64,000 nucleotides of DNA from Escherichia coli 042 (GTDB lineage Bacteria; Pseudomonadota; Gammaproteobacteria; Enterobacterales; Enterobacteriaceae), in the NCBI RefSeq assembly GCF_000027125.1, contig NC_017626.1; one strand, written 5' to 3'. Below, one piece after another: positions 2,142 through 11,792 of this stretch. The notes below the pieces were generated by a model that was not told the origin of the DNA, did no database searches, and saw only the letters and a list, made by a program, of their open reading frames with translations. A program made the position numbers and the translations under genes. Within the stretch, counting starts at the first letter, position 1. Each line of letters opens with the position of its first letter.

Positions 2142-3753
2142 GAATTTCTCCTGAAGCGCTGACTTCGCCAAACCAGCCGTTATCATCTACCGTACGCAGC
2201 GAAATGGCGTTATCCATTGGAATCGAAAATTTGACAGTAGTCTTATCCATCTGCCCCACTTCGCCAGAGATATCAGTCCACGGTGTAGTCAGCCACAGCG
2301 CATCGGTCATATCCCGCCAGCTATCATCGCACCCGGCATCGTAGGTTTTTGTAGCTCCGTTGCGGGCAATAAAGGAAAGTGTCGCCGGGAACGGTACTTT
2401 CGCCTTACCGTCATCGGAGCTGAAGACACAATAGGAGCGCCCGCCAATCACCTGCGCGGGTCCGGTCACCTTGATCAGCACTTCGTCGGCAGCTGTTTTA
2501 CCGCTGGTGGTTACGATATAACCGAAATCGAGTGCCGACTCGCCGCTACCAACATATCCCTCCCGCGACGGTGTCTGAGTATATTCATCGGAGATAATAC
2601 TGATGCTGAAATCACGGGGTTTGATAATCAGCGTGTTGGAGGTAGAAAATTCATACCAGCCAGACTCCGGTGATGTGGTGTTCTGAAAGCGAAAGTTGAA
2701 TAGATCTTTGGTGTTGATATCGCTGATCCCGAGGTTCACCATCTGCTTAAAGAAGTTGCTCGAGAAGAAAACATAGATCGAGTCTGCGCTCTTCATCTCG
2801 TTGAAGGTGTAGTAATAGGCAGTATTGCTCACCGGTTTCCATGAACTGCCATTCAGACTGAACTGCATATCGTACGCCCCGACGGCCGAGGCTAACGACG
2901 AGTTGGCGATCGCCGGGAATATATGGATTGAGGTGTTGCTGAGTCCGTTTGTTTGCAGGGTATAGTTAACCATCTTACAACTTAATCCTGAACGGCTGCC
3001 GATGGTTTGCGTCCGGCAGTCGGCGTTCCCTTCGCCCAGAGTCGGTACTCCGTCGCTGTTGATAAATACTTCCGCCAGCGAGTGGGTATTTATCAACCGT
3101 AGATTTGCTGCTTTCGTATGGGTGACGTTGCGAACATACCAGTTGCCGGAGGCCTGATCCTTACAGCGTGCGCCGCTGCTGGCGTCATAGTTCACAGAGG
3201 TCTGGCAGGCATTGATGGTCATTGTAAAGCTGCTGCCGACGGGCATTTGTTGCAGATACTGGTAAAACGCGTCTGACAACATGCCGTGCATCCACTTCGC
3301 GCCGCCGCTGGTCACCGTCGCGCCATAAAATCCACTGGCGTCGGTGGTTTGCGGCAGGATAAGACTGGTGGTCATATTACACCCTGCGTACCAGTTGATG
3401 CAGCGCAAGCCAGTTAAAGGAGATGAAACTGGTGAATTTTCCAGCCACATATCAAACTTCCAGTTGGTATAAAGGCCGGTGTTGTAACCGTTATCAATGT
3501 AGCCGAGGCTTTGCTGATAGATGGTTCCTGAACCATTGTATTTTAAACCGGTCCAGCGGTTGGCACCGGTCAGGCGCGGATCCAGCGCCCCGCCAGGCGT
3601 GACGAAAAAGTTGTCGTCTGAGTTGTTTTCGACAAACACAAACTCGCGTGCCGGAGCATCCGCCCAGGTTGTTTTGCTCACTGCCGCTCTGAGCGCGGTT
3701 GCAGGCCAGATTAGCGCAAAGATTATCATCGCTATCAGTAGGTTAACTCTCAT
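2110..3753 (-). CDS. ecpD: EcpD, tip adhesin/polymerised tip subunit of the E. coli common pilus
   Basis: 547-aa ORF with N-terminal signal peptide; size and position in the ecpRABCDE order. Confidence 0.9.
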
Positions 3754-8292: not shown

Positions 8293-9306
8293 TTACAGGT
8301 ACATTCAGTTTCTTTAGTAAATCGGAAGTAAATAAGATACGTAGCACATATCAATATAGGTTAAACGAGATTAAGTTTTAATTATTTCGATTAGGTTTAA
8401 ATTTATGTTTTTTTCCTGATGAGTGTCAATATGTGAACAGAAAAGGAATTCCATGGTTAAGTCAATATTTACAAAAAATGAAAATATTGCTTTTTTGATA
8501 AGAAGAAAAAGACATTCAGTTTCATAAGGTTATTGGCAATATAACGTTCAATTCTTACTTGCATTTTATATTAGCCAGGAACTTTGCCCTGAGGTGTTAG
8601 GAATAGTCTTAATGTGTTGTGTAATGGACTAGTAAAAAAACAAGTTTAAATGATAAGAAATAGAATATAAAACTATCATGAGTCATAATTAAAGATGATT
8701 TGCCAATCAGTAAGGTGTTTTAATGGATTAACATGCCGCACAAAATGGTTATGGGTGTTCATCCCAATAAGTGATGAAAAATTAAACAGGTGTAAGTACG
8801 TCATCTGTCCGGTAAGCCCCCTAAGAGCCAAATTAAGTGAAGTTAAACGAAGACTGCCAGTTGTCACAGGAACGATGGCCTCTTTGCCAGGGCACTGGAT
8901 TCAGTCATCTGTGCGCGTTACTCTAACTGGCACTCGAACGTCGGCGATGGGGTTACCGGTGGATCAGGCCGTTCCTGTGGCGTAAACGTTTTTATGTCAG
9001 TACCAACAGATTTACCACATTTATCATCTTAACAGTTTGAGTGTAAATGCAGGCTGCGTCGCAAAGGGAGGAAACTGAGTGGCGTGTTCAGTCTAAAAGA
9101 GGGTTGATGCCAGCATACAGGGCGAAGCTGGTCAACAAGTCAACATTAAGATAATGGAATATTCGGAGAGAAACGTCAGGCAGTTGACCTTAAATGAAGA
9201 GGAAGATATATCCCCAGGAAAATTAATGCTGGTGTAATAAATACACCAACATTAATCAGGTCTGATTATTAATCAGACAAATATCGTTAATCCGGCGAAT
9301 TATGAA

Positions 9307-9447
9307 TCAACGTTTTTTCTTACGCCCCTGAACGGCCTTAAAACGTGGATTAGATTTACAAATCACATACAGCCGTCCTTTTCGCTTCACAATCTGACAG
9401 TCTGGATGGCGTTCTTTTGCGGTACGCAGAGAGTTAAGGACTTTCAT
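9307..9447 (-). CDS. rpmJ2: Zinc-independent ribosomal protein L36 paralog
   Basis: Manually translated 46-aa [49 protein letters not shown]; its ATG overlaps the rpmE2 stop (ATGA). Below the ORF-track length cutoff. Confidence 0.9.
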
Positions 9448-9710
9448 CACGCCCCCTTTTTCGTGCTAACAAAACGACCAAAACGTTGGGTGAACCGTGC
9501 AACATTTCCTTCTGATGCTACTGTTCTCAGCTTCCCTGTATAGAACGGGTGCGATTTCGAAGAGACATCAATTGTCACGTACGGATACGTTACGCCATCC
9601 AGCTCAATCTCACGGTCTGTTTTGATAGTCGAGCCGATTTTAAAGTACTCATCAACACTGGTGTCATGGAACACCACAGTACGATACTCAGGATGGATAT
9701 TGGGTTTCAT
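9447..9710 (-). CDS. rpmE2: Zinc-independent ribosomal protein L31 paralog
   Basis: ORF 9447..9713 ([19 protein letters not shown]...); conserved L31 type-B N-terminus begins at the second Met. Confidence 0.9.
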
Positions 9711-9721
9711 CATTTTTACCC

Positions 9722-9739
9722 GTTATGTTATAACATAAC
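9722..9739 (-). promoter_or_regulatory. Zur box (zinc uptake regulator operator) upstream of rpmE2-rpmJ2
   Basis: Near-perfect palindrome GTTATGTTATAACATAAC immediately upstream of the rpmE2 start; matches the ATGTTATAA/ATAACAT core of the Zur consensus. Confidence 0.7.
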
Positions 9740-10649
9740 CGTAAAGATACATGCTCATCCGGATCATTTCAACACCCAATCCCTGTGACCATTTGTGGTA
9801 TGTGGAATTTCCTCAACGGGGAAGTCTGGCATTGTTAACAGCCATTGGCTGACGCTCCCATAAACGCCTGGATGAGTGATTGATGATGGTTTCGCTGAGA
9901 GTATGGATTTTTCGAGAATGGAGGTTATCTCCACTTTACTGGCCGATGATTTATCGCAGTATGATTGATTACCTGACAGCGTGTATTCCTCTCCCACGGA
10001 TATAATAATTACTTACAAAAAGGGAGAGGATGCATATTTTAAATATCACTGAAGTGAACAGTTTATTGCCGTTATTAATAGAAATGGAAAAATAAATAGG
10101 CGTATTCTACAATTGCGACAAAAACAACGATATTAATCAGTTTATGACTGATTTGTTGTACTTTATTCTCTTTCATTGGTACTTCCTCGCTTTAAAAAAG
10201 AGTGCACTTCGTAAGTGCCCTTATATAAATAACGAGTTTGGTCAACCAATTTTTTGACATGTATCACAAATTTGAATAGATGTATTACATCAACTATCTT
10301 TTATTGCCCCAACGTCATTGATATATGTCGCCTGAAGTCAGTTCCGGGAATGAGTCTGATCTCAAGACAGGCCCAGTCCTGGCGTTGATTAGCGCTGAGG
10401 AGCATATCGCATCTCATCATAATGTCGTATCTCCTGGGGTGTTATACAAGATATCGTTGTTGGTGACCTGGGAGAGGAATTGAGTTCTATTAAACCGTCA
10501 ACTATGCCGGATACATACTGGATTACACAGCAGGCACGCCTTATGAGAGAACGTGCCGCAGTGACGGGTTAATTATCTGAAAGAATTTGCGAGGCTGTAT
10601 CGGTTACTCATTGGTTTGATAGTTTTACTCTCGGGAGAGTAATAGATAT

Positions 10650-11792
10650 TTAATCCATTAACGGAAACCAGCCAGTTCCTTTCGATGCCTGAATTTGATC
10701 CCATAGTTTATCCGGAATGGTTAATTCAGGAACAAGTTGTGGATTAAGGGTTGTTTGAATTTCATGGCTTCTACCTGATTCAGCTAAAGTCACCCATTCT
10801 GGATTTATCACCAGCCCTTTACCGATCGCAACAAGTGGCAGGCCAGTGGAAATTGCTTCTTGAGCCTGAGACGGTGTGCGTATTTTACCTGCGGCGATTA
10901 CCGGCACTCTGCCTGCAATATGATTTAAAATCAATTCAATAGTTCGGGGGCCATTTGGCGACTCAACAGGGTAGCTATCGTTAATACTGACCAGCGAGGT
11001 ATGTATATACGAAATACCGGATGAAATGAGCCGATCAAGGAGTTTATAAGTATCCTCTATCCGCAGCCCCCCTGTTGCAGATTCTTCAGGAGATATTTTG
11101 TAACCGATGGCAAAGGGCTTTGTCGCATATTCATAGACTACATTTTTTACTTCCTGTAATACGGCCAGCGGGAAGCGCATACGTCCTTCGAGATCTCCTC
11201 CCCATCGGTCATTACGCTGGTTAAATAGAGGGGAGAAGAAATTCTGTAGAAGGAATCCGTGCGCACCATGAAGTTCAATGCCATCAAAACCTGCTTTAAT
11301 CGCCCTTTTTGTGACATCTCCGAATGCTCTAATGGTTTCCTGAATTTCGTTTTCAGTCATTTCCCTGCTTTTTACCACTCTCTTCATAAAGTCACCAGAT
11401 TTTACGCTTGATGCGCTGGCACTAATAACATCGTTATTTGGTACAAGCTCCGGGATGGCTTTATTACCGGCGTGGAAAATCTGCAAAATAGCCGGAGCAC
11501 CGCCACTTTTGGCTGCCGCTGCTAACTTTTCAAGGCTGTTAATGAAACGGTCGTCATACGCGGCAAATTCATGAGTAAACCCAATGCCGTTTGGCGTGAC
11601 ATAGGTACATCCTGTTATTACTAAACCAACATTTTGTGAGCGACGTTTATAAAATTCGAGTTCTTGCTCAGAGATGGTTCCATCAGGATTCGCTGACCAG
11701 GTCGTCATAGGAGCCATAACGATACGATTACGTAGCTTTATTTTTTCTGTCAGCATAAAAGGAGAAAACAATGATGGGTGTTTATTTGTCAT
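10650..11792 (-). CDS. NADH:flavin oxidoreductase, Old Yellow Enzyme family (FMN-dependent ene-reductase)
   Basis: 380-aa ORF with OYE hallmarks (N-terminal ...RIVMAPMTTW..., HGAHGFLL motif); GAGG SD 7 nt upstream of the ATG. Confidence 0.8.
   Translation of the reverse strand: MTNKHPSLFSPFMLTEKIKLRNRIVMAPMTTWSANPDGTISEQELEFYKRRSQNVGLVITGCTYVTPNGIGFTHEFAAYDDRFINSLEKLAAAAKSGGAPAILQIFHAGNKAIPELVPNNDVISASASSVKSGDFMKRVVKSREMTENEIQETIRAFGDVTKRAIKAGFDGIELHGAHGFLLQNFFSPLFNQRNDRWGGDLEGRMRFPLAVLQEVKNVVYEYATKPFAIGYKISPEESATGGLRIEDTYKLLDRLISSGISYIHTSLVSINDSYPVESPNGPRTIELILNHIAGRVPVIAAGKIRTPSQAQEAISTGLPLVAIGKGLVINPEWVTLAESGRSHEIQTTLNPQLVPELTIPDKLWDQIQASKGTGWFPLMD

Follow-up and report, generated by a model that had tools for sequence, protein, structure and literature searches.

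YkgR, the small membrane protein encoded by ykgR (b4671) in Escherichia coli K-12, has been dealt with in several publications. The K-12 protein accumulates in cells when expressed from a plasmid, as detected by western blot, and the same protein made in vitro cross-links to SRP after its release from the ribosome, both according to PMC7549839. Further, a tagged version of the K-12 allele is cleaved by RseP (PMC10470546), stationary-phase induction of ykgR is described in reviews, and the protein is also covered in PMC10502375.

Here, we analyzed a stretch of 64,000 nucleotides from E. coli 042 (the window, in whose coordinates all positions are given). An initial annotation had noted in it an A/T-rich gap between a Zur box and a gene of the OYE family, with two short plus-strand frames, termed orf21 and orf37 in this work, which were considered as possible small membrane proteins or leader peptides. 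[quoted passage not shown] With a probability of roughly 0.9, orf21 and orf37 are not genes, but an antisense shadow of ykgR read on the wrong strand. As ykgR is already known, being annotated in K-12 (b4671) and in RefSeq, and both flagged frames are the shadow of this known gene, the finding is an ordinary one. The features of the region are the following, in order of position:

9722–9772, minus strand: ykgMO control region, comprising the Zur-box palindrome and the promoter
9773–9982, no strand: poorly conserved, indel-rich spacer from the ykgMO promoter to the ykgR module
9983–10304, minus strand: conserved ykgR module of 322 bp (promoter region, leader, coding sequence and 3' stem-loop)
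9987–10030, minus strand: 3' stem-loop UCCUCUCCC / GGGAGAGGA, with 9 bp and a 26–27-nt loop
10030–10095, plus strand: orf21, 21 codons, most probably not a gene; antisense frame over the 3' end of ykgR
10075–10176, minus strand: ykgR coding sequence, for the 33-aa small membrane protein MKENKVQQISHKLINIVVFVAIVEYAYLFFHFY (RefSeq annotation and NF041474 match)
10144–10257, plus strand: orf37, 37 codons, most probably not a gene; antisense over the 5' end, Shine-Dalgarno sequence, hairpin and promoter of ykgR
10184–10188, minus strand: Shine-Dalgarno sequence GAGGA of ykgR, 7 nt upstream of the ATG, as read from the sequence
10194–10218, minus strand: terminator-like leader element, consisting of the hairpin GCACUU-ACG-AAGUGC (10218–10204) and a U6 run (10199–10194)
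10238–10249, minus strand: near-palindrome TTGGTTGACCAA in the ykgR upstream region, conserved in four lineages
10253–10268, no strand: CRP-like site, TGTGA-N6-TCAAA in minus-strand reading, ~85 bp upstream of the ykgR ATG
10305–10649, no strand: spacer downstream of the OYE gene, unannotated and single-copy, with no feature found
10650–11792, minus strand: gene for an NADH-dependent flavin oxidoreductase of the OYE family (PF00724, 257 bits; RefSeq annotation)

ykgR and the gap around it

The identity of ykgR was established by matches to protein families and by its genomic position. YkgR matched the NCBIfam model NF041474 over residues 1–33 of 33, with 74.9 bits against a cutoff of 40 and an E value of 2.5e-21, and precomputed hits assign the YkgR family to Pfam PF28062. 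At least 1000 contigs carry its exact sequence, named YkgR, and RefSeq annotates ykgR at this position in every genome inspected. The start codon of ykgM (9713) follows 361 bp downstream of the gene on the same strand, as is the case in K-12, in BL21 and in the RefSeq loci that were read. In comparison with K-12, its position between ykgM and the OYE/ykgP remnant, its strand and its length of 33 codons are the same, and no base differs across 10177–10275, which holds the leader and promoter. The protein encoded here differs from K-12 b4671 in a single residue and represents an L30F allele. It has a polar N-terminus (MKENKVQQISHKL) followed by a C-terminal hydrophobic helix (INIVVFVAIVEYAYLFFHFY), a layout that is kept in all lineages. 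The suggestion that the gap encodes small membrane proteins was borne out to the extent that ykgR, annotated in K-12, is present, but the frames nominated for this role are on the wrong strand. The gene itself, the only frame with a proper signal, had been overlooked; it overlaps both orf21 and orf37.

A full-length OYE gene is kept in this strain, whereas the K-12 version is reduced to ykgP, and the OYE remnants of K-12 and BL21 are at the equivalent position. The last 30 OYE codons (10650–10739) are the K-12 pseudogene ykgP. Its candidacy as a small protein of the gap can therefore be dismissed, since it is a 30-codon 3' remnant of the OYE gene. A role of the two frames as leader peptides for a downstream detoxification operon also fails, since OYE is encoded on the minus strand, so that its 3' end with the stop codon, and not its 5' end, faces the gap; the frames themselves are on the plus strand.

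The spacer next to the OYE gene (10305–10649) had no annotation under the matches listed among 5066 E. coli records, and neither Pfam nor NCBIfam matched its ORFs. The genomes with the V6I allele of YkgR (E. fergusonii-type) lack this spacer, and their OYE 3' remnant directly abuts the ykgR module. The segment 10305–10641 was also considered as a repeat or a mobile remnant, which was ruled out as it is single-copy and unannotated. At the other end of the gap, the Zur box (9722–9739) is a perfect 18-bp palindrome, GTTATGTTATAACATAAC, and the promoter scan located the ykgMO promoter at 9772–9744 (TTGAAA-17-TATCTT). PMC3946193 gives the same hexamers for ykgMO and also records that H-NS binds the spacer between ykgM and ykgR.

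With regard to its composition, the gap proved to be A/T-rich in its core (GC content of 30.5% at 9990–10300) rather than throughout, as values of 40.2% for the whole gap and of 41–46% for its flanks were obtained, compared to 49.5% for the window. The absence of a long ORF was confirmed, with nothing above 77 aa between the Zur-box palindrome and the OYE stop (10650). Within the 911 bp of the gap, 16 ORFs of at least 20 aa were counted versus 15.3 ± 2.5 in dinucleotide-type shuffles, and six of at least 37 aa versus 5.1 ± 1.8. Since the shuffled counts match the real ones, the presence of orf21 and orf37 is no more than expected by chance. Further, no credible Pfam or NCBIfam match was obtained for the gap ORFs of 77, 52, 39 and 30 aa, no Rfam match was found on either strand of 9200–11200 at a permissive threshold, and the promoter scan of the region returned three promoter-like matches versus 4.0 expected by chance.

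Conservation of the ykgR module

Frames were compared in 13 E. coli sequences and in three non-coli lineages, represented by E. albertii, SCPM-8794 as a divergent lineage of Escherichia, and the V6I genomes. Relatives were retrieved by a contig scan with the neighbour YkgM. As there is no ykgM beside ykgR in the E. fergusonii-type genomes, these were missed by the scan and were added by an exact-sequence look-up. A representative search also yielded a 66%-identical "YkgR homologue", P0046, which was discarded as it came from an indel-ridden assembly of the same locus and not from a distant relative.

A compact ykgR module is conserved across Escherichia, while both of its flanks turn over. In the E. 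fergusonii-type genomes, homology extends exactly from 10304 to 9983 with 88–89% identity, and the flanks are unrelated. The same block is the best-conserved one in E. albertii and SCPM-8794, and nucleotide divergence of the module amounts to ~11–16% in E. albertii, SCPM-8794 and the V6I genomes. Identity to E. albertii and SCPM-8794 was 88–90% for the coding sequence, 81–93% for the leader and 89–94% for the promoter, compared to only 41–48% of matching columns for the spacer at 9773–9982. Within E. coli, the ykgR core is retained at 99% identity or more in 3999 of 5072 records, versus 202 of 5080 for a flank of equal length.

Insertions and deletions are frequent in the spacer between the ykgMO promoter and the module. 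E. albertii and SCPM-8794 have ~95 bp extra at 9981/9982, deletions of 12–13 bp are present in E. coli ETEC4075 and 1579, and an ISEc8 insertion is located at ~9875 in O157:H7. No conserved ORF was detected in this spacer among the compared genomes.

The ykgR gene is intact in 12 of the 13 E. coli sequences and in every non-coli Escherichia lineage sampled. Amino acid identity of YkgR was 85% in E. albertii and 82% in SCPM-8794, and seven genomes with the V6I allele differ by one amino acid. A pN/pS of 0.20–0.24 was obtained in all pairs, and the 18 variable sites of the coding sequence are distributed over codon positions 3, 1 and 2 of ykgR as 12, 6 and 0, respectively. The gene is nevertheless dispensable: it is frameshifted in O157:H7, truncated in strain UTME-3 and absent from ~7% of complete E. 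coli genomes.

Candidate control elements of ykgR

The CRP-like site upstream of ykgR has one mismatch to TGTGAN6TCACA, a motif that occurs in the window no more often than chance predicts. Its half-sites are invariant in the four lineages, while the central spacer varies (TG/TC/CC). With its invariant half-sites around a variable spacer and the lack of a good -35 further downstream, this arrangement resembles CRP-dependent class II promoters. Activation of ykgR by CRP is reportedly a result of Hemm et al. 2010 (J Bacteriol 192:46). No canonical sigma-70 -10/-35 pair could be placed for the ykgR promoter, either by the promoter scan or by reading of the sequence, and TTGACC (10245–10240) is only 12–14 nt away from TATA-like hexamers. 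The near-palindrome TTGGTTGACCAA shows a single change among the lineages, one A→G in E. albertii.

The leader hairpin is located between the presumed promoter and the Shine-Dalgarno sequence, and is the only terminator-like match in the region. Its 6-bp stem contains three GC pairs, is followed by T6 and is present in the predicted minimum free energy fold. In an alignment of six distinct sequences, 94% of cells were paired, with one compensatory change (AU→GC) and three G·U changes that allow pairing only on the minus-strand RNA; with these six sequences, 67 of 500 shuffles equalled the real alignment. Judged by its sequence, the element appears to combine the GC stem, the U-run and the conservation at the RNA level of a terminator or leader hairpin. 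The GAGGA downstream of it is invariant in all lineages.

Beyond the coding sequence, the arms of the 3' stem-loop (9987–9995 and 10022–10030) form an inverted repeat with a fold z of -2.5. RNAalifold returned a nine-pair consensus in six sequences from four lineages, including a compensatory change (CG→UA) and one-sided G·U changes.

Taken together, these elements suggest how ykgR might be expressed. The CRP-type site (10268–10253) would activate a weak ykgR promoter, and the transcript would start at or just upstream of the GC hairpin and U-run (10218–10194), which may confer stability on the 5' end or block transcription reading through from the OYE gene. Translation would be driven by the GAGGA 7 nt before the ATG, and the 9-bp stem-loop ~45 nt past the ykgR stop may mark or protect the 3' end. 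It is also conceivable, though rather unlikely, that the 322-bp module harbours unrecognised regulation, with the hairpin, which is conserved throughout the genus, acting as a read-through insulator or attenuator and with TTGGTTGACCAA and the 3' stem-loop as further control points. The module boundaries (9983–10304), the leader hairpin and the CRP-like site are potentially useful for studies of ykgR regulation.

The plus-strand frames opposite ykgR

Both orf21 (MHILNITEVNSLLPLLIEMEK) and orf37 (beginning with MTDLLYFILFHWYFLALKK) were found exactly at the positions initially given for them, the latter without a Shine-Dalgarno sequence, as had been described. They share one plus-strand frame, in which position 2 faces position 2 of ykgR and position 1 faces position 3. 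In this frame, 12 of the 18 variable sites in the overlap with ykgR are at position 1 and 6 of 18 at position 3. Substitutions were not concentrated at the third positions of orf21 and orf37, where they would be expected in a translated gene.

Neither the comparison with relatives nor ribosome profiling favoured translation of the frames. Each of the three non-coli lineages carries its own, independent disruptions of both frames. The BL21 Ribo-RET list (a reanalysis, Stringer et al. Table S1, plus-strand rows), which covers one strain in exponential phase, contains no retapamulin initiation signal for the start or the peptide of either frame, nor one at any other plus-strand position of the interval. 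Positions in this table correspond to window positions + 273,250, as anchored by sequence, and the list covers the plus strand of the region, where it includes an antisense IERF within ykgM that corresponds to window position 9497. Frames without conservation across related genomes and without a profiling signal are the outcomes that the initial annotation itself had named as counting against its proposal.

If orf21 were translated, its 21-residue peptide would be driven by the purine run AGGGAGAGG and the TATAAT at 10001–10006. A strong purine run does adjoin the ATG, a perfect TATAAT is located 23 nt upstream, and the frame is intact in 12 of the 13 E. coli sequences, with a frameshift in strain 1579. 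However, AGGGAGAGG, proposed as a Shine-Dalgarno sequence, is 0–3 nt from the ATG instead of the usual 5–9 nt, and it is the plus-strand right arm of the conserved ykgR 3' stem-loop, whose stem ends with the A of this ATG. The TATAAT lacks a suitably spaced -35, was not called in the promoter scan and is not conserved, since it reads GATAGT, TATGAG or TATAAA in the non-coli lineages. In these three lineages the ATG is replaced by ATA, AAG or AAA, and in-frame stops are present in two of them. Further, the orf21 sequence has never been called as a protein among ~15 billion sequences, and it has no IERF in the BL21 list. A translated orf21 is thus extremely improbable, the least probable of the readings considered.

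Longer plus-strand ORFs that run into the orf21 frame, of 80 aa in E. albertii and 68 aa in SCPM-8794, were also rejected as a gene. The two share 42% identity over 45 aa, with a closer match of the underlying DNA, and a search of 5.8 billion proteins returned only the E. albertii sequence itself.

As for orf37, a young, E. coli-specific small hydrophobic protein might be produced from an antisense transcript over the 5' end of ykgR. Antisense-encoded small proteins exist in E. coli (Weaver et al.), the N-terminal half of orf37 is hydrophobic, and none of the 13 E. coli sequences sampled disrupts the frame, the one amino acid change being L→P in one strain. It has also been called automatically as a "hypothetical protein" in a few old GenBank records (23 contigs, e.g. 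EcE24377A_0310), but it is absent from RefSeq and from the K-12 annotation. This frame was broken differently in each of the three sister lineages: its start is GTT, followed by a +1 frameshift, in E. albertii, codon 12 is changed from TGG to TAG in SCPM-8794, and a +1 frameshift follows codon 25 in the V6I genomes. Over its whole length, orf37 lies opposite the coding sequence, Shine-Dalgarno sequence, hairpin and promoter of ykgR, and this full overlap accounts for its conservation. In the part shared with ykgR, variation falls on codon position 1 of orf37. Given also that it lacks a Shine-Dalgarno sequence, an IERF in the BL21 list and a conserved plus-strand promoter (three promoter-like matches in the region versus 4.0 by chance), we consider such a protein very improbable.

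The frames could also mark a regulatory antisense RNA, which would form a type I toxin–antitoxin-like pair with ykgR. YkgR is a small hydrophobic membrane peptide and a substrate of RseP, in the same class as Hok toxins (PMC10470546), and a promoter-like sequence, TGGAAA-17-TACAAT, is present in antisense orientation inside ykgR. This sequence is, however, one of the three matches for which 4.0 are expected by chance, and its -10 is not retained in E. albertii, which has AACAAC instead. In addition, no Rfam family was found on either strand of the ykgR region, and most type I families differ from this locus, which is present in a single copy. An arabinose promoter was used to express YkgR for its detection, and the available text of PMC7549839 mentions no toxicity. 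We regard a toxin–antitoxin-like pair as highly improbable, less so than a translated orf21 and more so than an orf37 protein.

The reading of orf21 and orf37 as the antisense shadow of ykgR has little wider significance; two false small-ORF candidates are eliminated, and the gap is attributed to an annotated gene. It may serve as a modest worked example: within one species, short ORFs that face a small A/T-rich gene and its untranslated regions may seem well conserved purely through hitch-hiking, which becomes apparent one step outside the species.

Among the antisense small proteins of E. coli that Ribo-seq has confirmed are yoaM, yqgG and yibX/yibY (Weaver et al.), which orf21 and orf37 resemble in being short ORFs opposite an annotated gene. 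Those ORFs have initiation peaks and tagged products, in contrast with orf21 and orf37, which have no IERF in BL21 and are broken in sister species. The two frames also resemble antisense shadow ORFs opposite real genes: position 2 faces position 2, their stop codons stand opposite Leu and Ser codons, and the constraint on the overlapping ykgR sequence is the only reason why orf21 and orf37 seem preserved within E. coli. They differ from plain shadow ORFs in that most of orf21 and a part of orf37 face untranslated regions of ykgR instead of its coding sequence, so that constraint on regulatory RNA and DNA also contributes to their persistence in E. coli.

Gene content of the gap

Between the Zur box and the gene for an OYE-family flavin oxidoreductase (9740-10650), the initial annotation had proposed two plus-strand frames as small-protein genes, here termed orf21 (21 codons) and orf37 (37 codons). 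Both were recovered by an ORF listing exactly at the positions claimed, and, as their starts (10030 and 10144) lie 114 nt apart, they are pieces of one reading frame. ORFs of 20 codons or more numbered 16 in the 911-bp gap vs. 15.3 ± 2.5 in dinucleotide-type shuffles, and those of 37 codons or more numbered 6 vs. 5.1 ± 1.8. Since these counts match the shuffles, orf21 and orf37 are unremarkable: the frames exist, but chance alone would supply as many. The description of the gap as A/T-rich applied to its core (30.5% GC at 9990-10300) but not to the gap overall (40.2%, with 49.5% for the window).

Features of the gap and its flanks (ykgO and ykgM from sequence reading and an ORF listing of 9300-11000)
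9307-9450, minus: ykgO
9447-9713, minus: ykgM
9722-9739: Zur box, 18-bp perfect palindrome GTTATGTTATAACATAAC (sequence reading)
9744-9772: ykgMO promoter, TTGAAA-17-TATCTT (promoter scan)
9773-9982: indel-rich stretch between the ykgMO promoter and the ykgR module
10030-10095, plus: orf21
10075-10176, minus: ykgR, MKENKVQQISHKLINIVVFVAIVEYAYLFFHFY (ORF listing)
10144-10257, plus: orf37
10305-10649: single-copy stretch, unannotated among the matches listed, its ORFs without family match in a profile search
10650-11792, minus: OYE-family flavin oxidoreductase, 380-aa ORF (Pfam PF00724, 257 bits)

The same pair of ykgMO hexamers, as well as H-NS binding in the ykgM-ykgR spacer, has been noted previously (PMC3946193). 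Within 9773-9982, two strains carried 12-13-bp deletions and no conserved ORFs were found. An Rfam search of both strands gave no match. Just past the stop of the OYE gene, a 7-bp stem (UUACUCU-CCCG-AGAGUAA, 10618-10638, minus), which lacks a U-run, may form a weak 3'-end structure for this gene.

The ykgR frame, preceded by GAGGA 7 nt upstream of its ATG (sequence reading), had gone unmentioned. Region 9700-10700 was present in 5,089 of 5,426 complete E. coli genomes (megablast), where the annotation under the match reads "ykgR: small membrane protein YkgR". Annotation of the near-identical strain BEC1-S17-ESBL-09, BL21-AI and K-12 MG1655 puts this gene on the minus strand at positions corresponding to 10075-10176 (b4671, 313,141-313,242 in K-12), and none of the three has a plus-strand gene annotated in the gap. 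The full-length product matched NCBIfam NF041474 (YkgR, equivalog; 74.9 bits, cutoff 40). Under the name YkgR, its exact sequence is present on at least 1000 contigs, and so is the K-12 allele. Thus, of the K-12 small proteins that had been named for this neighbourhood, ykgR is indeed a membrane protein gene, on the opposite strand, while ykgP is a pseudogene equivalent to 10650-10739, the 3'-terminal 30 codons of the OYE gene, the rest of which is lost from K-12 and BL21. The additional proposal of leader peptides for the OYE operon is excluded by gene orientation.

Conservation and translation of the plus-strand frames

Conservation of the three frames was compared in the window and 12 other E. 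coli genomes of different lineages (n = 13), in E. albertii and SCPM-O-B-8794 (a divergent lineage deposited as E. coli, YkgM 91% identical), both located by searching 100,044 species genomes with YkgM as query, and in seven E. fergusonii-type genomes with the V6I allele of YkgR, labelled "MULTISPECIES [Escherichia]" and E. fergusonii.

State of the three frames by lineage
ykgR (33 codons, minus): E. coli, intact in 12/13 (O157:H7, 1-nt deletion, annotated "frameshifted"); E. albertii, intact, 85% aa identity; SCPM-O-B-8794, intact, 82% aa identity; V6I genomes, intact, one aa change
orf21 (plus): E. coli, intact in 12/13 (+1 frameshift in strain 1579); E. albertii, ATG to ATA, 2-nt deletion, stop; SCPM-O-B-8794, ATG to AAG, in-frame stop; V6I genomes, ATG to AAA
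orf37 (plus): E. coli, intact in 13/13; E. albertii, start ATG to GTT, +1 frameshift; SCPM-O-B-8794, TGG to TAG at codon 12; V6I genomes, +1 frameshift after codon 25

As small-protein genes, the two plus-strand frames were hence contradicted by start loss, stops or frameshifts in all three non-coli lineages. Their common frame runs antisense to ykgR, the second codon positions of the two facing each other. In the ykgR frame, pN/pS was 0.20-0.24 in every pair, and the 18 variable sites of the coding sequence comprised 12 at position 3 and six at position 1, with position 2 invariant; those 12 position-3 sites are position 1 of the plus frame. No called protein corresponding to orf21 was found among approximately 15 billion sequences, and orf37 was auto-called as "hypothetical protein" on 23 contigs and is not in RefSeq. 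An 80-aa ORF of E. albertii that reads into the orf21 frame was rejected as a gene, being 42% identical to its SCPM-O-B-8794 counterpart and without relatives.

The within-species preservation of both frames is hitch-hiking: orf37 lies wholly over the 5' codons, Shine-Dalgarno (SD) sequence, leader and promoter of ykgR, and orf21 over the 3' part of its coding sequence and the conserved 3' region. A 201-nt query from the ykgR core matched 3999 of 5072 E. coli records at 99% identity or more, vs. 202 of 5080 for an equal-length query (9775-9975).

Ribosome-profiling data were consulted in a reanalysis of BL21 retapamulin (Ribo-RET) data comprising 12,756 initiation-enriched footprints (Stringer et al. 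2021). Plus-strand coordinates of its Table S1 correspond to window + 273,250 through the region, anchored by sequence at a GTG start antisense in ykgM (window 9497). No row start matched the orf21 or orf37 peptides, and no plus-strand footprints were listed at table 283,xxx-285,xxx, in this one strain during exponential growth. In Weaver et al. 2019, where 38 new small proteins were validated, the main text does not mention genes named ykg*. Weak footprints were located at the GTG at 9497 (0.8 RPM) and at an ATG in the ykgL frame (MNRKNISPGKLMLVL, ~9190-9237, plus; 5.4 RPM) (Stringer et al.). ykgL itself (~9046-9273, plus) is split into 35- and 27-codon ORFs in the window, annotated as frameshifted in BEC1-S17-ESBL-09 (L001 3348-3573) and intact in K-12 and BL21.

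Both refuting conditions set in the initial annotation, frames unconserved in related genomes and no profiling signal (here in BL21), apply to orf21 and orf37, which are the antisense shadow of ykgR; what stands of the initial annotation is that an annotated small membrane protein is present.

Boundaries and elements of the ykgR module

Elements of the ykgR module (all minus)
10268-10253: CRP-like site TGTGA-TACATG-TCAAA, one mismatch from TGTGAN6TCACA
10249-10238: near-palindrome TTGGTTGACCAA, between the CRP-like site and a TATA-rich stretch, kept in all four Escherichia lineages
10218-10204: leader hairpin GCACUU-ACG-AAGUGC, then U6 at 10199-10194
10188-10184: SD GAGGA
10176-10075: ykgR coding sequence
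10030-10022 with 9995-9987: 3' stem-loop, 9-bp stem UCCUCUCCC/GGGAGAGGA, fold z = -2.5

Identity to the window (E. albertii; SCPM-O-B-8794)
right of 10330: 29%; 51%
promoter region 10223-10275: 89%; 94%
leader 10177-10222: 81%; 93%
ykgR coding sequence: 90%; 88%
spacer 9773-9988: 41%; 48%

In the V6I genomes (L095-L102), the homologous stretch (88-89% identity) is bounded exactly by 10304 and 9983. Upstream of ykgR, the module is joined directly to an OYE 3' remnant and 10305-10641 (337 bp) is missing; downstream lie an integrase, a PerC-family gene or an aldehyde dehydrogenase, and ykgM/ykgO are absent there. ykgR thus persists while both flanks are replaced. E. albertii and SCPM-O-B-8794 carry ~95 bp extra at 9981/9982 (L004, L005 ~3120-3215), exactly at this left boundary, and ORFs crossing the insert are not conserved between them.

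Both CRP half-sites are invariant in four lineages around a central dinucleotide TG, TC or CC, the pattern that would be expected of a dimer-binding site, with the motif itself no commoner in the window than chance (2 found vs. 1.67 expected). CRP reportedly activates ykgR (Hemm et al. 2010, J Bacteriol 192:46). The near-palindrome TTGGTTGACCAA may be the binding site for a regulator, and no convincing -10 of the ykgR promoter could be assigned on sequence reading.

The leader hairpin was the sole terminator-like match in the region. Over six distinct sequences, 94% of cells pair; in so small a set, 67 of 500 shuffles did equally well. One AU to GC double change occurs in E. albertii, and three one-sided changes leave G·U in the minus-strand RNA where a plus-strand RNA would have C·A. 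This hairpin might serve as a 5'-end stabiliser, read-through insulator or attenuator.

The 3' stem-loop begins 45 nt past the ykgR stop codon and was recovered by RNAalifold in all four lineages, with a CG to UA compensatory pair and several G·U changes. Because the minus strand has no U-run beyond the stem-loop, it is not callable as an intrinsic terminator; it could protect the 3' end. Read on the plus strand, the 5' arm of this stem-loop (on the right in window coordinates) gives the AGGGAGAGG that had been reported before orf21, and the stem's last base is the A of the orf21 start codon. Just downstream of ykgR, ATATTTTAAATATCAC (10033-10050, plus) is non-coding yet nearly invariant across lineages and holds an A/T palindrome.

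The YkgR protein and its range

Searching 1.84 billion representative proteins (phmmer) retrieved Escherichia-type YkgR variants only, and none of 78 other enterobacterial genomes had ykgR adjoining ykgM, so the family is genus-restricted. In O157:H7 (FRIK944, EDL933; L084), ISEc8 (IS66-family) lies between ykgM and ykgR (~9875), and the ykgR deletion falls in an A-run (window 10115-10122); being frameshifted, ykgR is dispensable in that lineage. E. coli UTME-3 (L085) retains only the C-terminal part of ykgR, annotated partial, ~2.7 kb from the proA-tRNA-Thr region, the ecp-ykgM side having apparently been lost in a large deletion or rearrangement.

For the K-12 allele, YkgR expressed from a plasmid under arabinose induction gives a western-blot signal and, when made in vitro, the protein cross-links to SRP after ribosome release (PMC7549839). 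Reviews report stationary-phase induction (PMC10502375), and RseP, an intramembrane protease, cuts the tagged protein both in vivo and in vitro (PMC10470546). The ykgR feature is already known, and mild interest remains in its sharply bounded 322-bp module, with a conserved leader hairpin and a CRP-like site.
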